Assembly (NCBI GenBank): GCA_934096595.1
Contig: CAKOMH010000001.1
Location: 494-64,493, forward strand
Reading direction: 5' to 3'
DNA: 64,000 nt
Source of the DNA: an uncultured Bacilli bacterium
GTDB lineage: Bacteria > Bacillota_I > Bacilli_A > RF39 > UBA660
In this document: piece by piece, positions 3,083 through 64,000 of the stretch
How positions within the stretch are numbered: position 1 is the stretch's first letter
Layout: the number at the start of each line of letters is the position of its first letter
The notes under the pieces: generated by a model
Seen by the model: only the letters and a program-made list of their open reading frames with translations
What the model was told of the DNA's origin: nothing
Database searches by the model: none
Position numbers and translations under genes: made by a program

Positions 3083-3452
3083 GGGGCAGCATTGGTTTCG
3101 ACAGATATTTGTAAATTTTAGATGGCAAGTAGTCATGAAAACGACTTAAAATTTTCAATTAAATTTAAATGACGAAACAGAAGGAAACTTTGGTTTCAAT
3201 TTTGCTCCTTCATTTGCTTAAGTAAGCATTGGAGCTGCTTATTCTAGATTTATCTGTGATTTAGTTTAAGTATAATATTAGCGGATTATATTATTTTATT
3301 TGATTAGAATAAAATAATGAATAATATCTAATCTAGTTATAAATAAGGTAAGTTAAAGCCATTTTTATAATGAAATTCAAGTTTTAACTAAACTTGTAGA
3401 AGTCTAAGGTTTAGATATTTGGACAGGAGTTCAACTCTCCTCTGCTCCACCA
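3083..3452 (+). ncRNA. ssrA: tmRNA (SsrA), about 370 nt. It has a 5' GGGGCAGCATTGGTTTCGACAG acceptor/tRNA-like half and a 3' T-arm-like GAGTTCAACTCTCC plus GCTCCACCA end. The internal tag ORF ends ...NFGFNFAPSFA-TAA.
   Basis: The 5' and 3' ends match the hallmark tmRNA tRNA-like domain. The tag reading frame GAC GAA ACA GAA GGA AAC TTT GGT TTC AAT TTT GCT CCT TCA TTT GCT TAA gives a degradation tag ending in FA, as in Mollicutes/Erysipelotrichia-type tags. There is a consensus promoter upstream and a terminator downstream. Confidence 0.85.
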
Positions 3453-31392: not shown

Positions 31393-32613
31393 TTATCTCG
31401 AATACCACCAAACACCAGTTTTAGGATATCCAGGAGGTTCGATTGAATTGGCAATAAACCTCGACCAGCTTGTATAATCCTTCAAATAATAGCCTTTGGA
31501 AATACCAAAGTGAAGATGAGTACCAGTTGTACATCTATCATAACCGCCGTGAGCTTTCGCTGTTGAACCACCACCAATTAAACCAATAACTGTGTTAGTA
31601 GTAACCTTATCGCCAACTTTAACTTTAATTGATAAAAGATGGGCATACTGCATAGTATAGGCTTTACCTAAAACATTAACATGAACATAAACAATATTGC
31701 CACCACAACTAGATTTACGAGTTATCGCTGCAACCGTTCCAGCTGCTGCGGCATAAGCAGGAGTTCCTTCAGCATTACCCCCAATATCATGAGCATTGTG
31801 GAAACTTCCAGTATTAAGTACAGGATTGCGATAACCCCAACGCGAGTTAATCTTCCCTTTAGTAACTGGCTTTAACCATCCCGCTGAAGCTTGAACAGAT
31901 GTACAAGAAGTTAGCAACTGGGTTTCACTATTACAAATAGTTTTATAATAATCAATTAAAGTCTGTTGATTTTTAATCTGAGAATCTATATCCTCATTGA
32001 TATCATTAATTTCTTCTAACTGATTATTTAATTTAGAAATGGCTTGGAAAGTATTAGCTATTTTTTCATCTAATTGATTATTTTTATTAGCTAAATCTAC
32101 TTTTAATTGTTCATTTTCTTTAATTAAACCATCTAACTCATCAATCTTATTTTTATAATAACTAGACAATTGCGATACTGCTTCAACCCGCATAATTAAA
32201 TCAGTCGGACTAGAAGCTCCTGTAATATATTCTAAATACTCATTTTGATTAGTACTTAGTTGATAATATTTAAGTACTAAATCAACATCTTCTTTAGCCT
32301 TAGTAATATCTTCATTACTTTTCTTAATTTTTTCTTCGGCATCAACTACCGAACTTGCAATTTGTTGTTGTTCGGCTCTAGCATTTTCTACCGCTTGTTT
32401 ATTTTGATTTATTTGATTTTGGGTTTGTTTCTTATCGTTTTGAGCATCTGTTTTTTGCTTCTTTAACGCCTCTAATTCCTTTCTTAATCCCGCAATAGTC
32501 GTAGCCTTGCTATTATTTGTAGCAGCCATAACACTAAAAGGCTCTACAAAATAAGGAATTAGCATCAAAATAACTAAAATTAATCTAAAACTATAACTTA
32601 CTATTTTCTTCAT
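31393..32613 (-). CDS. Coiled-coil M23 family peptidase (EnvC/PcsB-like FtsEX-associated murein hydrolase activator)
   Basis: Signal peptide, a long Q/K/E-rich coiled coil, and a C-terminal M23 domain with HxxxD (NAHDIGG) and HLH (THLHFGI). Encoded immediately after ftsX. Confidence 0.85.
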   Translation of the reverse strand: MKKIVSYSFRLILVILMLIPYFVEPFSVMAATNNSKATTIAGLRKELEALKKQKTDAQNDKKQTQNQINQNKQAVENARAEQQQIASSVVDAEEKIKKSNEDITKAKEDVDLVLKYYQLSTNQNEYLEYITGASSPTDLIMRVEAVSQLSSYYKNKIDELDGLIKENEQLKVDLANKNNQLDEKIANTFQAISKLNNQLEEINDINEDIDSQIKNQQTLIDYYKTICNSETQLLTSCTSVQASAGWLKPVTKGKINSRWGYRNPVLNTGSFHNAHDIGGNAEGTPAYAAAAGTVAAITRKSSCGGNIVYVHVNVLGKAYTMQYAHLLSIKVKVGDKVTTNTVIGLIGGGSTAKAHGGYDRCTTGTHLHFGISKGYYLKDYTSWSRFIANSIEPPGYPKTGVWWYSR

Positions 32614-39263: not shown

Positions 39264-40033
39264 AACTCTATAATCTCCGATTTTTCATTTTGTTTAGCAC
39301 AACTAATATTTTCAAAATCAACCCCGTACTCCAAGAAAATATTTTTGATTGTTTCCATAGCTTTTTCTTCCGTATTATTTTCATGAGAAAGGTGCGTTAA
39401 TATTATTTTTTGCGTATTTTTGCCAATTAATTTAGCTAAATAGATACTAGCATCTTTATTAGATAAATGTCCATAAGGTCCAACAACTCTATCTTTTAAC
39501 CAAGCTGGATATTTACCATTTAGTAACATCTCCACATCATGATTACTCTCAAACAAATATACAGTCTTATCCCTTAAAGAGTTAAAATATTTTTGATTCA
39601 AATAACCAGTATCAGTTAAATAAACAACGCTATTATTTCCTTCATACAAAATATATCCTTTAGAATCCTTAGTATCATGGCTAGTTTTTATTACTTCAAT
39701 TTTAACATTATCTAAATAAATATCATCATCAAAAAGAATTAAATGTTCATACTTACTTATTGGGTTTTCACTTCCCAACTCACCTATCATTCCTACTGTC
39801 ATATAAACATTTGCCTGATATTTTTTTATATAATTTTCTAAAGCTCCAATATGATCGCTATGAATATGCGATATGATTATAGTATCAATATCAGTTAAAG
39901 AAACGCTTAATTCTTCTAAGCGTTCCTTTATATATCTAACATTAGTTCCCATATCAAACAATATTTTGTGTTTTTCCGTTTCTACATAAGTAGAGTTTCC
40001 CTTAGAACCACTAGCTAATACACATATTCTCAT
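39260..40033 (-). CDS. MBL-fold metallo-hydrolase, YycJ/WalJ-like
   Basis: HIHSDHIG motif. It is positioned before rlmH, as yycJ is in Bacilli. Confidence 0.75.
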   Translation of the reverse strand: MRICVLASGSKGNSTYVETEKHKILFDMGTNVRYIKERLEELSVSLTDIDTIIISHIHSDHIGALENYIKKYQANVYMTVGMIGELGSENPISKYEHLILFDDDIYLDNVKIEVIKTSHDTKDSKGYILYEGNNSVVYLTDTGYLNQKYFNSLRDKTVYLFESNHDVEMLLNGKYPAWLKDRVVGPYGHLSNKDASIYLAKLIGKNTQKIILTHLSHENNTEEKAMETIKNIFLEYGVDFENISCAKQNEKSEIIEL

Positions 40034-41553
40034 TATCTATATATTGTGATAGGATTTATAGCTTTACTGCCTTTTTGATATGGCACCCCAGTCCAGAAAC
40101 CTAAGTGTAAGTGCGTACCAGTAACCAAACCACTCTTACCCATGGCGCCAATCTTCTGTGCACGGCTTACTTGTTGATTTTTAGAAACATAGACATCTGA
40201 CAAGTGGGCATACAATGAACAGTATCCATTTGGATGTTGAACAATAATGTTTAAACCACTACTTTTACCAGCATATCCACCGTAACCAGTCCATATAACT
40301 GTACCAGATGCAATTGCAAAAATTGGTGAGCCATAACCAGTACCAGATATATCTAAACCATCATGACTTGTACGATTAAATAAGTAACGCGTACCAAAAC
40401 CCGAAGTAATAATATATGGCTTTAATGTTGGCCAAGCATATTCCGTACCATCATCAACATAATTACCCCAGTTACCACTCGAAATAGATTTTTTACCTTT
40501 AACAATAACTTCATTAACAGTTTCTCTTACCATATATGTATTATCTTTATCGATAACAACTTGTTGACTGGCATCTCCATTAATTACCTGTGTACGCGAA
40601 GCAACACGGCGAATACCATTAACGCCCTTCGTTTGAACTAAACGATAACTAGTATCTTTAGAATAATCATACTTTGTTTCTGTCGAATATTTTTCTTCAA
40701 CATCTTTAACAATATATTTATCATATACCAATTGTAACATTGGATTAATTAAGGATATAACTACTTTATCTCCAACTGCTAATAAGTCATTTTCACTATT
40801 ATATTTGGGATTAGCTACCAAAAATTCGGAAACATTTAACTCATTAGCCTCGGCAATACTAGCAATTGTATCTCCTACTTTTACTGTATATTCTGATTCT
40901 TTACTATCAGTTCCAAATAACAAATACTTACTTAAGCTATCTACATCTGTAAAAATTTTCTCATCAGTGCTTATATAAGATTCTTTAATTGATATATTTT
41001 CTTGAAAATAAATATTTTCAATTCGTTCACCTACATCAACAATCTCTTTTTGTTCATTATTAATATAAGCTAAATATTCATCTTCCGGAATAAATGATAA
41101 GATAACTTTCTTTATTGCTTCTTCAAATACCTTTTCATCTAAAACATTAATTTTAAACAATACTTTTGAATCTCCATTATCATCTTTATCACTTACTGTA
41201 ATAGTATAACCCTTTATAGTAAAATTCTTTGATTCTTTTATTTTATCATAAATTTCTGTAACACTAGAAACACTAGAATTATATGTATTTAATTTAGTTA
41301 TTGAAAATCCTTTTGGGGGATATACTTGATCTACATTATATTCTTCTTTTATACTCGATTGTTCTTCATTAATAAGTGCATAAAGTTCATCTTGACTACC
41401 AATCATTCCTATTTTTTCACCGTTTAAGTATACTTGATAAACCCCTTCTACTTCATCAGCATAACTAGTTTTATAAGAAGTGGCAATAAACATTGCTACT
41501 CCAAATATCATTGTCGTTAATATGCATAGAATTTGTGTCTTTTTACTCATCAA
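40033..41553 (-). CDS. Membrane-anchored LysM-domain M23 peptidase
   Basis: N-terminal TM, a central LysM (YTVKVGDTIASIA...), and a C-terminal M23 (HDGLDI ... THLHLGF). Confidence 0.85.
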   Translation of the reverse strand: MMSKKTQILCILTTMIFGVAMFIATSYKTSYADEVEGVYQVYLNGEKIGMIGSQDELYALINEEQSSIKEEYNVDQVYPPKGFSITKLNTYNSSVSSVTEIYDKIKESKNFTIKGYTITVSDKDDNGDSKVLFKINVLDEKVFEEAIKKVILSFIPEDEYLAYINNEQKEIVDVGERIENIYFQENISIKESYISTDEKIFTDVDSLSKYLLFGTDSKESEYTVKVGDTIASIAEANELNVSEFLVANPKYNSENDLLAVGDKVVISLINPMLQLVYDKYIVKDVEEKYSTETKYDYSKDTSYRLVQTKGVNGIRRVASRTQVINGDASQQVVIDKDNTYMVRETVNEVIVKGKKSISSGNWGNYVDDGTEYAWPTLKPYIITSGFGTRYLFNRTSHDGLDISGTGYGSPIFAIASGTVIWTGYGGYAGKSSGLNIIVQHPNGYCSLYAHLSDVYVSKNQQVSRAQKIGAMGKSGLVTGTHLHLGFWTGVPYQKGSKAINPITIYR

Positions 41554-55544: not shown

Positions 55545-55787
55545 ATGAAAAGTTTAGAATATTTAATGTATGTTGATGAACAAGAAGAAAAAGAAAAGAT
55601 TTATAATTCTGAAACGAAAGAATTCTATAAAAATGGCGAGATAAAAGGCAAACTCAAAAAAACAAAAGAAACCATAAAAAATGCAACCAAAATGGGATTT
55701 ACATTAGAACAAATTTCTGGTTTAGTTAATCTTCCTATCAATGAGATATTAGTTATTCAAAACGAGATAAGCAATAATCAAGATTAA
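55545..55787 (+). CDS. Small standalone protein resembling the C-terminal tail module of Rpn/YhgA-like (PD-(D/E)XK, transposase_31) proteins
   Basis: …GEIKGKLKKTKETIKNATKMGFTLEQISGLVNLPINEILVIQNEI matches the characteristic Rpn C-terminal tail pattern (G.E.G......IAKKML..G...E.I...TGLS.EEI). There is no nuclease domain upstream. Confidence 0.45.
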   Translation: MKSLEYLMYVDEQEEKEKIYNSETKEFYKNGEIKGKLKKTKETIKNATKMGFTLEQISGLVNLPINEILVIQNEISNNQD

Positions 55788-55791
55788 TTTT

Positions 55792-55844
55792 AAAACTCTA
55801 TTACGCAATTTTCTATTTTTTTAGATTTTGCGTAATAGAGTTTT
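55792..55844. terminator. Perfect 17-bp inverted repeat (AAAACTCTATTACGCAA-N19-TTGCGTAATAGAGTTTT) between convergent genes. Bidirectional terminator or hairpin; the right arm contains the stop codon of the Gly-rich gene.
   Basis: Arms at 55792-55808 and 55828-55844 are exact reverse complements. Confidence 0.6.
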
Positions 55845-57258
55845 ATTCATCTATACTCGCCAAAGTTATTCTGGCATAACCATTGCCTTTTTTAGCACAA
55901 TAACTAATAGGCGTTTCTTCATTACAAGTAGTTGATATTGTTTTCGTACTCTCTTCATTAGACTCTTCACAATTGTAACAGTACATAACTTTGTTAGTTA
56001 AAAGCAAATTCCCGATATAACCTGAGCCACCGCCGCCAGCATTAAAATCTTCTCCGTAAGCAGAATTTATATTTCCACCATAAAATCCGCCACCGCCACC
56101 AGACACACCGTTACTATAGCCTATTCCTGTTCCGTCGCAACCTTTTCCAAAAGCACAGCCAGATATTTGATTTCCGCCAAGTCCACTATTATTTTCTCCT
56201 TGCATTCCAGCTATTCCACCGCCAGAACCGCCGTGTTGAGAATAGTTTCCAGCACCACCACCACCAGATACTATGTAAATACTATTTTTATAATTTTCTA
56301 AACTACTGAGCAAGCCTGATTTTGTGGCAATATGAGTTGCTCCCCCACCTCCGCCGCCAGTTTCAGATTGATTCGTATTTATTTCAAATTTGTTATTATC
56401 CCAAGTTCCAGAACCACCGCCATTATAACCGCCAGCAGTATCTTGACCTTTAACAGCTGTTGAGCCGGTGCCGCCAACATTTAAGTAAACAACATCATTT
56501 TTAGATAAAATAACAAATCCAGATGCAAAACCACCATATCCCCCCAACTCTAGTAAACGACCATCTATTATCGAACTTCCACCTTGTGCGCCCCATGTTT
56601 CTAACTTATAAGTTCCCGATACTGGGGCAATAAAAGTCTGCTCTGCTCCTGTATAATCAAAATTAAATACCATATCACCAGTATAATTAAAATTAATTGG
56701 TTTACCCACTACTACTATTTTAGACTTAAAAGTTTTAATCTCATTATTTAAATCTTCTAAAGTAGTATTATAATCTATCCATAATCTTAAAGAATAATCT
56801 TTACTTTGCCCTGATTTCAAAATACCTGTAGTTAATTTTCTACTTTCAATACTACTAGTATTTACTTTATTTGCATTATCAAAATTACTAAGTAGGTTTA
56901 TTTCTTTAATATCATTATTTTCCAACATGACATCAATAAATTTACTGGATAAAGTACTATTATTTAACACTTCTAAATTAACTGAATACTCAGCAGTTAT
57001 ATCACAAGTATTAATAACCGTAAAAGTATAAGGAGTTAAACTTTTACCCTTATCATTACTTATTGGATAAGCATTATCTAAATTAATACTATTCTCTTGA
57101 TTACTTATAGATAAGTCAAAACACTTAGATTCTGCCATATTAGTAGTATCTTGACTAACCGATATATTCCACATCGAATAAGATACTCCTATACCCAACA
57201 ATATTATTAATACTAAACTTATACTTATAAATATTACACTATTTTTCATAACTTCCAC
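55843..57258 (-). CDS. Secreted glycine-rich repeat protein: an N-terminal signal-anchor and Ig-like domain, then a FIAPVSGTYKLETWGAQGG motif followed by long GGxGG/GGGGG tracts and a Cys-containing C-terminal region
   Basis: Direct reading. Reminiscent of bacterial glycine-rich (Gly_rich-like) secreted proteins. No search was possible. Confidence 0.55.
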   Translation of the reverse strand: MEVMKNSVIFISISLVLIILLGIGVSYSMWNISVSQDTTNMAESKCFDLSISNQENSINLDNAYPISNDKGKSLTPYTFTVINTCDITAEYSVNLEVLNNSTLSSKFIDVMLENNDIKEINLLSNFDNANKVNTSSIESRKLTTGILKSGQSKDYSLRLWIDYNTTLEDLNNEIKTFKSKIVVVGKPINFNYTGDMVFNFDYTGAEQTFIAPVSGTYKLETWGAQGGSSIIDGRLLELGGYGGFASGFVILSKNDVVYLNVGGTGSTAVKGQDTAGGYNGGGSGTWDNNKFEINTNQSETGGGGGGATHIATKSGLLSSLENYKNSIYIVSGGGGAGNYSQHGGSGGGIAGMQGENNSGLGGNQISGCAFGKGCDGTGIGYSNGVSGGGGGFYGGNINSAYGEDFNAGGGGSGYIGNLLLTNKVMYCYNCEESNEESTKTISTTCNEETPISYCAKKGNGYARITLASIDE

Positions 57259-57386
57259 TATTCCTTATTATGTTTCAGTATAATATTAACAAAATAAAAT
57301 CAATATTTATGCAATGCTTTTTGTCTTATAATATGCAATCTATAATTGCCATACTTTATGTAATACAATCTTATTAGGAGTTACTT

Positions 57387-57578
57387 ATGAATGCGTTTAA
57401 AATATCACCTAAAGGAGAAACTGATAATAAAACTATTCGTTTTCCCTTAGAACTTATTGAAAAAATTGAAAAAGCAATCGTTGGTCAAGATATAACTTTT
57501 AGTAGATTTGTTATCTTAGCCTGTGAATATGCTCTTAATAATATGGAAAAAGAAGACAAAGATAAAACTAGTAAATAA
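57387..57578 (+). CDS. Small ribbon-helix-helix (CopG/Arc-like) protein
   Basis: TIRFPLELIEKIEKAI beta-strand plus helix pattern, 63 aa. Confidence 0.45.
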   Translation: MNAFKISPKGETDNKTIRFPLELIEKIEKAIVGQDITFSRFVILACEYALNNMEKEDKDKTSK

Positions 57579-57611
57579 ATTAAAAAAAGTCGTCTTAAAA
57601 CGGCTCTTTAT

Positions 57612-59318
57612 TTATTTTCTTTTTTTTATTAATAATCTATCTGCTAAAACATCATCTAACATTTTTAGCGAATCATCTTCATTAATATCTGTATAAAGAT
57701 AATTATTACCAATAATCTCTTGGATTTTAGGAAATTTCTCTAATAACTTACTTAATTTATTAGTAAATAAATAACTATTATTATCATTTATATTCTCTTC
57801 GGAAATACCAGAACTTATATTAGTAAATACATCTTTTAGATCTATCTTTTTATATTCTTCATAAATCTTTTCTATATCTTCTTCTTTAGTATAGTAAATA
57901 GTACTTAAGGCTTTAAAGAAACTATCTTTGATTATTTTATATTGTTTACAAAACTTATCATAACAATAAGTTTCATTATTATTACCTATATCATCTACTA
58001 AGAAGGCTCCATCTGCAATCTGATTAGCAATTAAATAATATAATAAAATATTATCTTCTAAACTTAAATCATTATTATCTATATTATATTTAATTAAATT
58101 ACTTATAGCAATTTTAAATATAGATATATAATGTAAATTACTAAGTGTATCATTTACTTTAAAAATATCATCTTTATCATAATTATCTTTACTACCTAAT
58201 AACTTAATTATATAATTATTTCTACAATCTAAAGCATCCATTGTATATATAATACTTAATATTTCTTTCTTTTCTTCAATATTATTAGCGCCCAAATAAC
58301 TAAATAAAGCCTCTATATCTTCATCATTAATAGCCTTATAATAATCTTTTATTCCATAGTCATTAAAAAGAGAGCATAATAACAATTTATTTTCTAATTT
58401 ACGATAATATTCATAAGTATAAGCAAACTCCTTGCTTAAAGATTCGTAGCCGCCTTCTATTCCTAAATTATATAAAATACTTTCCGCACTTGCTTCCATT
58501 AGAAAACTATGATTATGTCCATTGAAGAAATCAAGCTTTAAAACACCGCCGTTATCTAACTTATCGCTACAAGCCCTTTGTCTTACATGGCTAAGTTCAT
58601 GTTTTACTGTTTCATCAATCCTAGCCAATATTTTATCCAGATCATAACTACTATTTAAAATATTATTTAAGCATATTTCAATAACATTATTACTATAAGA
58701 ATAACTAGCATAGGCAATATTTTCTTCATCATGGCTTGCAATATTGGGAACAAAAACGACACTTAATTCTGTAAAACTATGGATATCTTCATTAGTTCCA
58801 GTACTTAAAACAAATCCTAAATAACTATATAAAGCATTATAAATATCATCTTTTATTAAAGCAATATCTTTTTCACTAAAAGAATAACCATATTCATTAG
58901 TAGCCTTAATATTATTAAAGTAATCCTCATCAAAAAATGAAGTATAATCTAATTCTTTTAGTTCATTTGCCAAGTTAAAAGAATTAACTTTTATTTTAGC
59001 AATCAACTCATCAATAGTAATATTAAAATCTTTTTCACACAGAATATTATCTCTATTAATAAGTTCATCTACTTCTGAATCATTTAATTTAACAACATCA
59101 GTAATTCCCAAATCCGTTAAATTTTTTATATTTTCTTGTAATAAAACTTCTAAGTCTTCTGTTCTATTATTTGAATCAGCCTTACTAACCATATCAATTT
59201 TATTATCTTGTTTACATCCGCAGGCATTTATGGTAACTGTTAAACATAATAGAAAAGATGCTATTCTTCTATTAATATTTTTCACTTTTTCCCCCTGTAA
59301 TTGCCTACTATTATACAC
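57612..59318 (-). CDS. Secreted protein or lipoprotein with an HExxH zinc-metallopeptidase motif (VKHELSHV, followed 30 aa later by MEASAE). Paralog of 59343..60935.
   Basis: Signal peptide with a Cys-containing lipobox-like INACGC. The family is distantly like DUF4932 (HE[FL]xH...EA). Confidence 0.55.
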   Translation of the reverse strand: MYNSRQLQGEKVKNINRRIASFLLCLTVTINACGCKQDNKIDMVSKADSNNRTEDLEVLLQENIKNLTDLGITDVVKLNDSEVDELINRDNILCEKDFNITIDELIAKIKVNSFNLANELKELDYTSFFDEDYFNNIKATNEYGYSFSEKDIALIKDDIYNALYSYLGFVLSTGTNEDIHSFTELSVVFVPNIASHDEENIAYASYSYSNNVIEICLNNILNSSYDLDKILARIDETVKHELSHVRQRACSDKLDNGGVLKLDFFNGHNHSFLMEASAESILYNLGIEGGYESLSKEFAYTYEYYRKLENKLLLCSLFNDYGIKDYYKAINDEDIEALFSYLGANNIEEKKEILSIIYTMDALDCRNNYIIKLLGSKDNYDKDDIFKVNDTLSNLHYISIFKIAISNLIKYNIDNNDLSLEDNILLYYLIANQIADGAFLVDDIGNNNETYCYDKFCKQYKIIKDSFFKALSTIYYTKEEDIEKIYEEYKKIDLKDVFTNISSGISEENINDNNSYLFTNKLSKLLEKFPKIQEIIGNNYLYTDINEDDSLKMLDDVLADRLLIKKRK

Positions 59319-59342: not shown

Positions 59343-60935
59343 TTATTTTAAAACGAATCTAAATTCACTATCATTCTTTATTAAGCCATCTTTAACTATC
59401 AATAAATTATTATAATTAAAATCACTTAAAAAAGTACCACCATTTACTATATTTCTAATTTTAGGAAACTTATTTACTAAATTGGCTATTTTGCTAACAT
59501 CTTCACCACTTACTTTAGATTCTTTAACATAACTACTTATATTGCTTAACCAAATTTCTTTATCTTTATTATCATAATAATCTTTTATATCTTCATAACT
59601 AAGATTATATATTGAACTTAAATAATTAAAATATATCTCTTCAATCAACTTATAATTATCTAAAAATTCTTTATAAAATGTATAACTAACTTCATGAGTA
59701 GTATAATCATAATTACCAAAACTAGCACTATCTAATATATTTACTAAGATAAAATGATATAATATTAAATTATCATCCAAACTTAATACTTCTTTTTGCC
59801 TATTATAAAGTATTAACTGGAGAACACTATTTTTTAATATATAACTTTCAATAATTCCCCCAGTACTATCTGTTAAAAATTCATTTATATTAATATCATT
59901 TAATTTACTAAAATCATCACTATTAATTAATCTACTCCAATAACTATTTCTAACTAATCTTCCATCAATTAACCACAACATACTTAATAAATCTTTTATT
60001 TCTTTATCACTATAAGCATTAAAATAGTTACAAAAATTTAAAATATCGCCTTTAAATAAAGTCTCATAATATTTGTCTATAGATTTATCATTATCTAAAA
60101 AACTTAATAAAAGCAACTTACTTTCATACTTTCTTTCTTCTAAGTTATTATAACTATAATTAAAGTTCTTATTAATTGGTTGATAATTATTTTTTAAAAT
60201 ATTATAGTTATAAGAAGTTGCAACCGCCTCATTTAAGAAAGATATTCCCCCTTCTCCTTTTAATTTATAATGACATTTGTTATCTTCGCAAGGTACTACA
60301 AACATATGATTAAATTCATGATTAATTGTATCAAATAAATTCATATATAAATCATCCAAGTTATTAGCATTCTTTAATATATTATTTAAAGATATAACTA
60401 TCAAATTATCTTTTTCAAAATATTCTCCCAGTTGTTCTTGGTCTTCAAAATCACCCATTAATATTTTTAAAGATAATAACTTATGAACATCATCTTTTCT
60501 TCTCTTATCTAAAAGTACTCTATTAATAATATCTAATATAGTATTTTCTATATATTTTCTTATTTCATCATCAGCTATATCACTAATTAATAAATAATTT
60601 TCTTTATCTTGAATATATATTTTACTATTTAAATTTATAATGTTATATAAATCTATTTTATTGCCCGTAAAGTTATAATCACAAGAAACATTACTAATTT
60701 TACCTATTTTTATTAAGTCTTGTAATTCTTTATCGCTTAATAAAGTCTTAGCATTTAAAGGCATGGTAATATCATTTACTTGATTTATAAAATCAATGTC
60801 ACTCTTAGTATCATCTATAGCCTCTGCTTTAGCCTTAATTAAATGATTTTCTCTTCCATTTATAAAAGAAACTATAGTTATAGAAAGGCAAAGTCCTAAT
60901 ATCGCTCCCATCTTGCCTAAGCTTTTAATTGTCAT
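59343..60935 (-). CDS. Secreted HExxH putative metallopeptidase (INHEFNHMFVVP, followed 27 aa later by NEAVAT). Tandem paralog of 57612..59318.
   Basis: Signal peptide with AKA-EA cleavage. Shares a C-terminal ...KFPKI[QR].I.G... block with its neighbor. Confidence 0.55.
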   Translation of the reverse strand: MTIKSLGKMGAILGLCLSITIVSFINGRENHLIKAKAEAIDDTKSDIDFINQVNDITMPLNAKTLLSDKELQDLIKIGKISNVSCDYNFTGNKIDLYNIINLNSKIYIQDKENYLLISDIADDEIRKYIENTILDIINRVLLDKRRKDDVHKLLSLKILMGDFEDQEQLGEYFEKDNLIVISLNNILKNANNLDDLYMNLFDTINHEFNHMFVVPCEDNKCHYKLKGEGGISFLNEAVATSYNYNILKNNYQPINKNFNYSYNNLEERKYESKLLLLSFLDNDKSIDKYYETLFKGDILNFCNYFNAYSDKEIKDLLSMLWLIDGRLVRNSYWSRLINSDDFSKLNDININEFLTDSTGGIIESYILKNSVLQLILYNRQKEVLSLDDNLILYHFILVNILDSASFGNYDYTTHEVSYTFYKEFLDNYKLIEEIYFNYLSSIYNLSYEDIKDYYDNKDKEIWLSNISSYVKESKVSGEDVSKIANLVNKFPKIRNIVNGGTFLSDFNYNNLLIVKDGLIKNDSEFRFVLK

Positions 60936-61014: not shown

Positions 61015-62098
61015 TTATTTTTTTAATTTTAATACTGACTCCATAATAGCCAATATATCTCCATCTAAAACTTTGAAGGCTTGACTAGTTTCATATCCAC
61101 TTCTTAAGTCTTTTACCAAAGTATAAGGTTCTAAAACATAATTTCTAATTTGACTACCAAAATTAATGCTATCACTAATTCCCTTTTCTTTATTTAACTC
61201 GGCTTCTTTTTTTTCTACTTCTAATTGATACAATTTAGATTTTAGCATTTCCATGGCTCTTTCTTTATTGCGTAGCTGACTTCTTTCTACTTGGCAAGAT
61301 ACCACTATTTTGGTTGGCAAATGCGTAATTCTAACCGCCGAATCACTAGTATTTACCGATTGACCACCAGCCCCACTCGAATGAAAAACATCTATTTTTA
61401 AGTCTTCATCTTTAATTTCAATATCACTTACTTTATCAAATTCTGGCACTACTGTAACAGAAGCAAAGGAAGTATGGCGTCTTTTATTAGAATCAAACGG
61501 TGATATTCTTACTAGTCTATGGACCCCTTTTTCGCCTTTAAAATATCCATAACTCATATTGCCACTAATTCTTAAAGTTACCGATTTTACCCCTGCTTCT
61601 TCGCCTTTTAAAAAGTCAATAACCTCATATTTATATCCATTTGCCTCACAAAATCTCTCATACATTCGAAGTAACATCGAAGCCCAATCCATAGCCTCGG
61701 TTCCCCCCGCCCCCGGATGAATTTCTAAAAAGCAATTTAAATTATCATAAGGCCCATTAAGTAAGGTTGCTACTTCTAATTCTTCAATTAATTTTTCAGC
61801 ATTTAAAAACTCGGTCTCTAAATCATCTTTTAGGCTATCATCTAAACTAACTAACTCTATTAAGTCTTTTAACCCATCAACGATACTACTAGCCTTCTTT
61901 AAATCACTAAGTTCTTTTTTTAAATTAATAAGTTCACTATTAACTTTATTGGCATAAACATTATCATTCCAAATATTAGGTTGATTTAAAATATCCTCTA
62001 ATTCTTTTATTCTTTTGTCTTTAGCACTAACATCAAAGTGACCTCCCAATATCACTTAATTTATTTACTAACACATTATATCTTTCATTAATATCCAT
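61015..62098 (-). CDS. prfB: Peptide chain release factor 2 with a programmed +1 ribosomal frameshift. Frame 0 gives MDINERYNVLVNKLSDIGRSL and stops at TGA; translation continues in the +1 frame as DVSAKDKR...
   Basis: SPF tripeptide motif (RISPFDS) and GGQ (SGAGGQS). The frameshift cassette GGGAGG-TCA-CTT-TGA-T lies at about 62030-62050. ATG at 62098 with a GGAGA RBS. The track ORF 61015..62055 starts at an artefactual GTG. Confidence 0.9.
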
Positions 62099-62834
62099 TA
62101 TTTATTCTCCTTAAAACCATATCTATATCTAAAAGAGTAGTATTATCATCTACCTTTAAAGACTTTTGTAAACTAAAATAAAACTCCTCTAAACTCTCAG
62201 TAACACTAATTATACCACATTCTAAAGCCCCTCGGCTAAAATCTACTAATCGAAAGTGATTTAAAACTTCATAAAGACTATAATCCCCTAAATATTTAAA
62301 AATACTTCTTAAAATTATTTGCCAAATTTTATAAGCCATCTCAATATATAATTTATCGCTATCATAATTTTTATCAATATTAGATAAATCAAAATCTAAT
62401 AAATATAAATTACCATTTTTATAAAGCATATTACCAGAAAGAATATCAACTAAGTTAATATTATTATTAGCCAATAGTCTAATACTTTCTAATAACTTTT
62501 GATAAGCCTCCAATAACTCTTTTATCTTCGTTTCTCTATTTATAAAATTAACATTAGAAGCGTTTATAAACTTCGTATTATATCCCAAGATAGCCTTATC
62601 AGTCATATATATATCACGAGGTAATATTAACTGACTTTCACCATCTAACTTTCCTAATTTAACTAATAAATTAAATATATCTTTTCCAATTTTTTGGTCT
62701 AAACTACGATAACAATCTAAAAATATTTTTACGATATAATCATTTTCTTGAAAATACAATTTATTTGTACTTTTTACTTTAAACTCCTTTAATTTTGGTA
62801 TATCTTTAACACTTTGCACTTTAATTATTGCCAT
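62088..62834 (-). CDS. Mini protein-kinase-like fold protein (Kdo/RIO/CotS-like phosphotransferase), paralog 1. It has a beta3-Lys (IVKIF), a catalytic D-x4-N (DILSGN) and a DFD (LLDFD).
   Basis: Direct motif reading. It overlaps the prfB start by 11 nt and paralog 2 by 10 nt. Confidence 0.5.
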   Translation of the reverse strand: MAIIKVQSVKDIPKLKEFKVKSTNKLYFQENDYIVKIFLDCYRSLDQKIGKDIFNLLVKLGKLDGESQLILPRDIYMTDKAILGYNTKFINASNVNFINRETKIKELLEAYQKLLESIRLLANNNINLVDILSGNMLYKNGNLYLLDFDLSNIDKNYDSDKLYIEMAYKIWQIILRSIFKYLGDYSLYEVLNHFRLVDFSRGALECGIISVTESLEEFYFSLQKSLKVDDNTTLLDIDMVLRRINNGY

Positions 62835-63550
62835 AACTTCTCATTCCTTAAACATCTTCTTATATCACCAACGGTTTCTATTTTTTCTTGACTCTTTCTT
62901 GCTATTTTTAATCTTAGTAAATTTATAAAAGCAATATAATCCGTACTTTCTAAGTTATCAATTCTTTCTTTTATATAATTAATATCTATATCATTTAACC
63001 AATTTAAATCATAGGAATCAAGCATTCTATCAATTATTAAATTAAACAAAGACATTCCCATTATTTTATAAGCCATATCTATATCATCAAAATAAATACA
63101 GTTATCAAAATCAATTAAATATAAATTATTTTTATCAAATAAAACATTTCCGCCCCAAATATCGGGATTTAAAATACCAATAGCACTTATTTTTTGAATA
63201 TCTTCTAAAAGCCCCATTACCATTTTAATAACCTTATTAATAAATATATCTTCAGTTAAGTAATCCAACGGTTTTCCTAAACAGATAGGCATACTATAAC
63301 CTAGAAATTCTTTTTCAGTTATATATAAATTTTGAGGTAACTCTAAATATTTAATGTCCTTTAATTCTGATAACTTTTCTAATACTTGCAATCTATTATA
63401 ATTAGTCCCATCGCTTAATAATCTATCACAAATATTTAAGACTTTTAAATACTTACCATTTTTATAATAGATTTTACTTCTACTCCATATCATTAATTCT
63501 TTATCCGGAAGTCTTAAATCTTCAATACTTTTTACCTTTACTATTGCCAC
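62825..63550 (-). CDS. Mini protein-kinase-like fold protein, paralog 2 (YLKVLNI, DIWGGN, LIDFD)
   Basis: Same motif set. The C-terminal ETVGDIRRCL block is shared with paralog 3. Confidence 0.5.
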   Translation of the reverse strand: MAIVKVKSIEDLRLPDKELMIWSRSKIYYKNGKYLKVLNICDRLLSDGTNYNRLQVLEKLSELKDIKYLELPQNLYITEKEFLGYSMPICLGKPLDYLTEDIFINKVIKMVMGLLEDIQKISAIGILNPDIWGGNVLFDKNNLYLIDFDNCIYFDDIDMAYKIMGMSLFNLIIDRMLDSYDLNWLNDIDINYIKERIDNLESTDYIAFINLLRLKIARKSQEKIETVGDIRRCLRNEKLWQ

Positions 63551-63552
63551 AT

Positions 63553-64000
63553 TTATCCTCTTTTAGTTAAATTAAGACACATTCTTAAATCGCCAACTGT
63601 TTTTATTCTTTTCCTAGTATAAGTTTCCAATTTCCATCTTAATAGTTCAAAATATAAATCATAATTAGTACTTCTAAAAGACTTAAATTCTTGTTCTAAA
63701 GTCTCTAAATCTCTTTCCATTAATAAGGGTGACCCAAAACCATCTTTTACTAAACTTAAATATACAGTTTGAAATATATTATGTAAAGTTCTTAAATATA
63801 CTCGATCATCGCAATAAATACTATTATCAAAATCAATTAAATACATTCTTCCATCATATAAAATATTATTAGAAGTAGTATCATAATTAAATATCTTATT
63901 ATCTGCAAGTATTCTTATATCTTTTCTAAGTAATTTAAAAGATTTTATTACATCATCATATTTACTATTTAAACTAATATCCATTATTGTCTTAGCATCT
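63553..64000 (-). CDS. Mini protein-kinase-like fold protein, paralog 3. It is 5'-truncated by the window end; the reading frame stays open to 64000.
   Basis: YLIDFD and the C-terminal KTVGDLRMCL block. No stop is found upstream of the M at 63984 within the window. Confidence 0.5.
   Translation of the reverse strand, partial: DAKTIMDISLNSKYDDVIKSFKLLRKDIRILADNKIFNYDTTSNNILYDGRMYLIDFDNSIYCDDRVYLRTLHNIFQTVYLSLVKDGFGSPLLMERDLETLEQEFKSFRSTNYDLYFELLRWKLETYTRKRIKTVGDLRMCLNLTKRG

Follow-up and report, generated by a model that had tools for sequence, protein, structure and literature searches.

A glycine-rich domain of the ALK/LTK type with a hypervariable, recombining core in a many-copy protein family of gut Bacilli

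Introduction

The stretch of 64,000 nucleotides studied here, hereafter the window (contig CAKOMH010000001.1, positions 494 to 64,493, from an uncultured Bacilli bacterium, assembly GCA_934096595.1), encodes on its reverse strand (55843..57249) a glycine-rich protein of 468 residues. Which fold does such a protein adopt and what may it be used for? The original prediction pictured it as an exported, membrane-anchored repeat protein, beta-solenoid-like and of a kind poorly characterised in Firmicutes. Here we report that its C-terminal half belongs to the family of the glycine-rich domain (GRD) of ALK and LTK, that the core of this domain is hypervariable and is exchanged by recombination between strongly conserved ends, and that the gene is one of many paralogues.

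The GRD of ALK and LTK is medically important and regarded as a structural rarity. It is part of the so-called TG module, the ligand-binding part of a membrane-tethered extracellular protein of which both structure and binding have been well studied. Prokaryotic relatives are numerous: the PF12810-type domain family counts 4,830 representative clusters (50% identity) at an E-value of 1e-3 or better. Their function is nearly absent from searchable literature, as the original prediction had it for Firmicutes, and literature searches gave no description of the bacterial family studied here. New here are the high copy number of the family, the division of its hypervariable core into discrete types and a connection with pilins and phage receptor-binding proteins, which together form an architectural and evolutionary variation on a known domain family and give prokaryotic ALK-type domains a testable role. 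The locus offers a tractable example, from an abundant uncultured gut lineage, of a possible bacterial use of the domain, with a constrained scaffold and discrete, recombining loop cassettes.

Materials and methods

Residues are numbered according to the 468-residue form, except where a 471-residue form is stated. Domains were assigned by hidden Markov models (HMMs) of Pfam and NCBIfam, structures were modelled by AlphaFold2 and compared by Foldseek. Homologous loci (L numbers) were collected by a pattern-based scan of one genome per species, and copy counts are to be read as lower bounds. Nonsynonymous (pN) and synonymous (pS) differences were compared per region. TM scores and the predicted local distance difference test (pLDDT) and predicted TM score (pTM) are given as usual.

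Results and discussion

Domain identity

Residues 191-468 (55846..56679, reverse strand) form an ALK/LTK-type glycine-rich, or TG-like, module according to Pfam, the model, Foldseek and profile searches. Pfam family PF12810 (ALK_LTK_GRD), which the original prediction had proposed for a search, is matched from model position 7 to 242 (of 243), in effect full length, at 115.1 bits against a cut-off of 24.5 (E 6.7e-33). The match maps to 55861-56619 on the same strand, which are residues 214-466 in the 471-residue numbering; paralogues score 111-265 bits. A search of PDB sequences with the single sequence missed ALK and gave just a designed Kelch-like protein, on a GG-containing stretch, hence a profile search was needed. 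The profile of 57 family members matched six ALK chains at ~1e-5, with the signature motifs aligned block for block and the glycine blocks of the family on those of ALK. Common motifs are QxFxxPxxGxYxxxxxGAxGG, LYIxVGxxG, GGGGGAT, GGGxGYIGxN and a (V/A)xGGGG block that reads VSGGGG here and AAGGGG in ALK. The motif FIAPVSGTYKLETWGAQGG is also found in the protein.

The AlphaFold2 model has a mean pLDDT of 75.7 and a pTM of 0.73, with a pLDDT of 85-98 over most of residues 191-420. All of the top 21 Foldseek matches in the PDB are ALK or LTK (E 7.6e-9 to 3.3e-6, probability 1.0). TM scores by target amount to 0.24-0.52, or 0.34-0.52 without one partial alignment; such low values indicate that the loops differ from those of ALK/LTK. 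Homology with ALK/LTK (PDB IDs 7LRZ, 7MZY, 7N00, 7NX1 and 7NWZ) is therefore seen by HMM, by profile and in the predicted fold. Sequence and model predict that the C-terminal half has the ALK/LTK fold, with a TNF-like sandwich and a glycine-rich subdomain; by homology, the domain would be a TNF-like beta-sandwich packed on a lattice of polyglycine-II helices. Indirectly in favour of such a lattice, the glycine blocks coincide with those of ALK in the alignment, and the model gives the region high confidence but neither helix nor strand. The view that the protein has no well-characterised relatives thus fails for structure, which is well characterised in ALK/LTK, and holds for the function of bacterial members.

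The bacterial protein differs from ALK and LTK, with which it shares ~17-20% sequence identity, in several respects. Pfam detects no kinase domain, and there is no cytoplasmic domain: the sole hydrophobic helix comprises residues 3-23 and the protein ends at the GRD, so that the anchor is N-terminal rather than C-terminal. MAM, LDLa and EGF modules are replaced by a jelly-roll stalk. Finally, hypervariable loops and a many-copy gene are found here and not in ALK/LTK. We know of no bacterial counterpart of the ALKAL cytokine ligands.

Hypervariable core

In the alignment of homologues, residues 1-222 and 406-468 are nearly invariant, whereas residues 225-405 (56035..56577, reverse strand) are highly variable and rich in indels. 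This core is delimited by alignment, entropy, pN/pS and nucleotide identity; mean column entropy is 2.1 bits in the core versus 0.3-0.6 bits in the flanks. It contains nine variable segments (residues 225-236, 247-255, 262-272, 281-299, 320-323, 334-340, 348-358, 371-382 and 394-404), between which the glycine motifs GGYGG, YNGGG, GGGGGATH, VSGGGG, GGSGGG, FGxG and GGGGGxYGG are conserved. Dips in model confidence (residues 281-300, 371-380 and 391-400) coincide with variable segments. The predicted glycine tracts are borne out by 59 glycines among the 190 residues 225-414, and the glycine-rich part stands out as a local spike in G+C content (0.43 versus a background of ~0.25). The gene's DNA has no tandem repeats and no homopolymer longer than six, so the term repeat protein fits the recurring glycine motifs only and slipped-strand or tandem-repeat variation was rejected.

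The core is followed by a GGGSGYIGN motif and a four-cysteine module (residues 406-468; 55846..56034, reverse strand) that ends in an NGYARITL strand. No other part of the protein is under such strong constraint (pN/pS 0.06-0.13 here). The module corresponds to the cysteine-rich tail noted in the original prediction, with C424, C427 and C451 invariant and C442 nearly so.

Among paralogues in one metagenome-assembled genome (MAG), pN and pS are 0.04 and 0.47 for the C-terminus, 0.07-0.12 and 0.34-0.49 for the N domain, and 0.40 and 0.65 for the core. Since a pS of 0.34-0.58 at the ends is combined with a very low pN, conservation results from purifying selection on the protein and not from recent homogenisation of the DNA, and recent gene conversion was rejected as its cause. 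This purifying selection is strong, both over the first 222 residues and over the last 63.

The core falls into discrete types. In a set of 120 homologues, nine proteins have a core with 82% identity or more and all others have one with 51% or less; in the rows inspected of the same set the N-terminal part is 81-96% and the C-terminal part 85-97% identical (medians 84% and 90%). One homologue (P0014) is 96% identical in the N-terminal part, 37% in the core and 92% in the C-terminal part. At L002, the positional orthologue in a close relative, neighbouring proteins show 94-100% identity, the 63-residue small protein encoded beside the gene 100%, and the GRD protein 89%, 51% and 89% (N-terminal part, core, C-terminal part). 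Nucleotide identity with L002 falls from 83-100% to 39-64% between ~56040 and 56579, apart from an island of 93% at 56280-56339, and recovers to 87-93% past the core; the core variation includes many indels and replacement of whole segments, which makes a diversity-generating retroelement a less likely source. Such a sharp drop argues for allele replacement by recombination and not for gradual divergence: the core is swapped between alleles in a process of mosaic exchange. Even where an allele of the same type is compared (91% amino acid identity), the GRD gene is the most divergent of the locus, with a pS of 0.31 versus 0.02-0.19 in the flanks.

Paralogous family and architectures

Among the candidates scored, 3,744 homologues were found at an E-value of 1e-3 or better; the best 120 of these are almost all 405-502 residues long and all carry PF12810. 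We recovered 66 loci in genome contigs, nearly all from MAGs of uncultured human-gut 'Bacilli', with further loci in 'Tenericutes' UMGS735, Coprobacillus sp. CAG:605 and a buffalo-omasum MAG. The gene has many paralogues in MAGs of human-gut Bacilli: CAKOMC contains at least 12 GRD genes and CAKOSN about 19 or more, counts that include six consecutive GRD genes in tandem at L033. The window itself has a single copy; neither a second copy nor silent cassettes were found within its 64 kb.

Five architectures were recognised. The protein of the window consists of an anchor, a jelly-roll and a GRD (architecture 1). Other members have an anchor, a short cysteine domain of ~70 residues and a GRD (~360-390 residues; architecture 2), join the same jelly-roll to other, unannotated C-terminal heads (~650 residues; architecture 3) or carry two GRDs (architecture 4). 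In one lineage a type IV pilin N-terminus (KKGFTLVEL; PF07963, E 2.9e-6) is fused with the GRD in a tandem array (architecture 5). The array comprises about eight genes with one or two GRDs each (L050, 1011-10214, and L062, Bacilli bacterium RGIG7548, JAFYYX010000001). Heads of ~300-460 residues without annotation are joined to anchor and jelly-roll at L003 (5914-17970), L006, L011, L013, L014, L016 and L018, and genes of this kind often adjoin GRD genes. This suggests that proteins with anchor and jelly-roll make up a modular surface superfamily of stalks with exchangeable heads.

Some more distant members were observed. Giant GRD proteins of 4,000-7,663 residues (library proteins P0196-P0260) have up to 11 matched GRD stretches each. 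At L055 (a Muribaculaceae MAG) and L057 (a Phocaeicola vulgatus bin) the C-terminal module is 75-79% identical to that of the window protein, and the L057 protein has the N-terminal motif GVSYAYF; these Bacteroidota-binned members reflect either misbinning or lateral transfer.

Putative N-terminal anchor and stalk domain

The N-terminal hydrophobic helix (residues 1-23; 57181..57249, reverse strand; residues 3-23 helical in the model) was predicted as a signal-anchor, and model and sequence agree with an exported, membrane-anchored protein. It would act as signal-anchor or signal peptide, with K2 intracellular and the rest of the protein extracellular. A lipobox is lacking, as no cysteine precedes residue 43. 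Residues ~40-186 (56692..57132, reverse strand) are conserved and model as a nine-strand jelly-roll beta-sandwich; the cysteine pairs predicted for this part are represented by C43 and C82, both invariant in the family alignment.

This putative stalk has no HMM match and no match among PDB sequences, and a homology search brought up no annotated relative but for the most part fragments of proteins from the same clade. Foldseek gave weak, generic jelly-roll matches with TM scores of 0.3-0.4, namely the C-terminal domain of Chlamydia Pgp3, the archaeal bundling pilin AbpA (7ueg), carbohydrate-binding modules and viral jelly-rolls.

Function and alternative explanations

On balance we think it somewhat more probable than not that the protein is displayed on the surface as a variable binding module, like an adhesin or antigen. 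The protein would be exported, with the N-terminal helix as membrane anchor or cleaved signal and the jelly-roll domain as stalk. The conserved glycine motifs, flanking strands and cysteine-rich C-terminus may then provide a rigid scaffold that leaves the nine loops between the motifs room for variation; these loops most likely make up the binding or recognition surface. Diversification would proceed by paralogue expansion and by exchange of core cassettes through recombination, such that the specificity or antigenic face on display differs between strains and between paralogues; diverse ligands, phages or host antibody plausibly exert the selection behind this. The adjacent YlcI-like DNA-binding protein probably controls expression through the highly conserved divergent promoter region. 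A surface or binding context is suggested by the occurrence of the domain on type IV pilin N-termini and in phage receptor-binding and virion proteins. If the loops are indeed the binding surface, they would account for a large fraction of strain-level surface variation in these organisms, represent a new natural binder scaffold and inform ideas on the origin of the ALK ligand-binding domain.

Several points weigh against this reading. In PtsHN10M, a receptor-binding protein of the PtsM type with the low-molecular-weight SlpA subunit as its target, a conserved glycine-rich domain was assigned by Pfam to residues 14-267, and the C-terminus is diverse (PMC9615553). There the GRD is the conserved part, and the variable C-terminus is taken as the receptor-binding part (PMC9615553), so that the GRD of bacteria and phages is at most a putative binding surface. 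Positive selection on the core is not demonstrated, as its pN/pS is ~0.6 rather than above 1, a value from an unreliable core alignment. Finally the cell is walled, and a two-domain, membrane-held protein may not pass the wall unless it is released or polymerised. That the organism is walled, despite relatives labelled 'Tenericutes', follows from peptidoglycan hydrolases encoded in the window, a PcsB-like protein (coiled-coil and M23; 31393-32613) and a LysM and M23 protein (40033-41553).

The main rival explanation is that the protein is the subunit or tip of a surface fibre, in which the jelly-roll polymerises and the GRD decorates, the pilin-fused relatives being a type IV pilus version of the same. 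An S-Y-S-x-W-N...Q motif (residues 23-33; 57151..57183, reverse strand) directly follows the helix and may be a processing or assembly signal; in the fibre it would serve either for processing or as a donor strand, as in TasA and archaeal bundling pili. Its residues S23, Y24, S25, W27 and Q33 are invariant in the family, distant members keep SYA[YL][WYL], and residues 19-39 have a pLDDT below 50, as expected of an unplaced strand. The N-domain model weakly resembles 7ueg (probability 0.96, TM 0.32) and the full-length model CanA (TM 0.15 by query, 0.33 by target), tandem arrays encode pilin-GRD fusions, and a wall has to be crossed. Against a fibre, no match was obtained with HMMs for N_methyl (PF07963), TasA/camelysin, Peptidase_M73 or the SipW signal, even at an E-value of 10, and the N-terminus MKNSVIFISISLVLIILLGIGVSYS lacks the G-F-T-L-x-E of the type IV pilin methylation motif (G/FTLxE). 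TasA is not among the top 50 fold matches of the N-domain, where TM scores are only 0.3-0.4, and we kept a TasA/SipW interpretation of the motif solely as part of this rival. Moreover, no signal peptidase, pilus or sortase genes recur beside the paralogues, and short-N paralogues have neither the SYSxWN motif nor the stalk. Taken together, we regard a fibre as unlikely.

A structural or wall-associated envelope protein appears less probable still. Here the glycine lattice would be mechanical or bind wall polymer, and loop variation would amount to drift and recombination without specific ligands. The pN/pS of the core is compatible with such relaxed constraint, short-N paralogues place the domain near the membrane, the organism is walled and no ligand is known. 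Nevertheless, discrete core types on a constrained scaffold, and allele replacement in a locus that is otherwise 94-100% identical, are more typical of recognition molecules, and pilins as well as tail and virion proteins of phages carry the same domain.

That the gene is a remnant or domesticated receptor-binding protein of a phage or tailocin is very improbable. Receptor-binding proteins of C. difficile phages, prophages and diffocins are the only prokaryotic functional context that we found for the domain, and a complete PF12810 domain (E 4.7e-48) was confirmed in gp21 of C. difficile myophage phiCDHM11, whose gene directly follows the tail-fibre gene. In addition, 75 predicted viral structures share the fold at an E-value of 1e-3 or better, including cyanophage virion structural and gut-virome proteins, and the gene lies between the remnant of an Rpn-family nuclease and a YlcI gene of prophage type. 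Like the window protein, the PtsM type and gp21 combine a conserved and a variable part in one protein with a full PF12810, there in host recognition. In PtsM, however, the domain is N-terminal and conserved while a separate C-terminus varies, whereas here it is C-terminal and varies inside; and PtsM is encoded in a tail module, unlike the present gene with its membrane helix and its chromosomal housekeeping context (prfA, BipA and YitT as neighbours in four genomes). Phage matches are confined to the initial ~70 residues of the domain, with ~40% identity, the locus has no phage structural genes, and a search for the motifs of this family in 2.9 million viral contigs gave no relative. A prophage origin was rejected given the housekeeping synteny and the lack of viral-contig relatives.

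Scarcely credible, lastly, is an orphan beta-solenoid or beta-helix, despite the high glycine content with Y, N and S between the tracts and the poor characterisation of Firmicutes members, because Pfam (full-length) and fold matches exclusively concern the ALK/LTK TNF-like plus glycine-rich module, residues 260-415 have almost no regular strands in the model at high confidence, and the DNA shows no repeat periodicity.

Two known systems resemble the variable binding module that we favour. For the gp38 adhesins of T-even phages a nomenclature of glycine-rich motifs (GRM) and hypervariable segments (HVS) exists. Motifs of a polyglycine-II scaffold alternate with hypervariable segments that set specificity in gp38 of Salmonella phage S16 (PDB ID 6F45), according to the account of Dunne et al. 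2018 given in PMC13243192. The design principle is the same, yet the likeness is one of organisation only: gp38 sits on the phage tail-fibre tip protein and has a different fold, a polyglycine sandwich without TNF-like sandwich, and 6F45 was absent from phmmer and profile results and from the 50 Foldseek PDB matches listed.

The Vsp, Vlp and MgpB-type systems of mycoplasmas are multigene families of variable surface proteins in small-genome Bacillota/Mycoplasmatota. They share with the present family a large number of paralogues in a small genome, ends that are conserved around a variable middle, and recombinational exchange. They differ in that the family studied here has no lipobox, tandem repeats or slippage homopolymers, is found in a walled organism and has an unrelated fold; likewise, the window showed neither an invertible promoter nor an array of silent cassettes.

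A wider view can be put forward tentatively, and we would sooner doubt it than rely on it. The ALK-type GRD of bacteria and phages might be a general hypervariable display scaffold, with about nine exchangeable loops on a polyglycine-II lattice, from which the metazoan ALK/LTK domain descends. Gut Bacilli would shuffle a library of 12-20 such genes and thereby alter surface specificity or evade phages and antibody.

Gene start, control region and neighbouring genes

The reading frame 55843..57258 on the reverse strand is as originally predicted, with a GTG start at 57258 that gives 471 residues. The true start is probably the ATG at 57249, giving the 468-residue protein (55843..57249, stop codon at 55843-55845), since an AAGGA ribosome-binding site lies 12 nt ahead of this ATG and only 3 nt ahead of the GTG, and homologues are called at 468 residues, beginning with MKK or MTKK.

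Upstream lies a divergent intergenic control region of 137 bp (57250..57386), which is ~95% conserved in four genomes. Two copies of TATGCAAT, 24 nt apart (57308-57315 and 57332-57339), are candidate operator sites. No strong inverted repeats bracket the promoter. On the other side a divergent gene (57387..57578, forward strand) encodes a 63-residue small protein of the YlcI/YnfO family (E 3e-8, above cut-off), which is 100% and 98% identical in positional orthologue loci. At seven other loci (L012, L015, L019, L020, L023, L031 and L032) an XRE protein of ~145 residues with two helix-turn-helix domains in tandem is encoded divergently upstream of a GRD paralogue. With the YlcI-like gene here, a unit of small regulator plus GRD gene thus recurs, which suggests gene-by-gene control. 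Apart from the divergent small regulator, no operon partner is conserved across the paralogue loci. The sole terminator-like site scored in the region (57588-57605, forward strand) comes just after the YlcI-like gene.

Downstream, a perfect inverted repeat (55791..55845) spans the whole stop codon. The original prediction was right on its perfection and on the stop codon, its arms (55791-55808 and 55828-55845, 100% complementary, 19-nt loop) being 18 bp instead of 17. The hairpin separates two convergent genes and probably ends transcripts in both directions; it went unscored in the terminator scan owing to its overlong loop and the lack of a T-tract.

The convergent gene is an 80-residue open reading frame (ORF; 55545..55787, forward strand) that resembles the C-terminal tail of Rpn/PDDEXK_2 nucleases (C-terminal end of TIGR01784, E 4e-5). 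The GRD gene thus has the Rpn-tail-like and small-gene neighbours that were predicted, the former probably without functional link to it. At this position relatives carry a full Rpn gene of 303 residues. The window, L002, L007 and L012 keep only a tail-like ORF of ~80-88 residues, whereas L067 (9463-10810) and L047 have both a full gene of ~300 residues and a distinct tail ORF. Two places in L067 align to the same ~290 bp of the window, which suggests a duplication, and this could mediate deletion of the Rpn gene.

Locus order is kept in four genomes, in agreement with a chromosomal position: prfA, two paralogous genes for proteins of ~530 residues, the 63-residue gene, the GRD gene, Rpn or its tail, YitT, a 250-residue protein and BipA. 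The tandem paralogues (~526 and ~530 residues; 57612-59318 and 59343-60935) have signal or lipoprotein-like N-termini and HExxH-like motifs (HELSH, NHEFNH), without significant Pfam or NCBIfam match; L007 has four copies, and relatives are 68-94% identical. They may represent an uncharacterised secreted metalloprotease-like family. Elsewhere in the window, Rfam RF00023 identifies a transfer-messenger RNA gene (3083-3452, forward strand; 119 bits). Upstream of prfA, 62088-63984 encodes three consecutive paralogous proteins of ~240 residues without Pfam match, of which the 248-residue member has a pN/pS of ~1.1 compared with its L067 orthologue, unlike all its neighbours.

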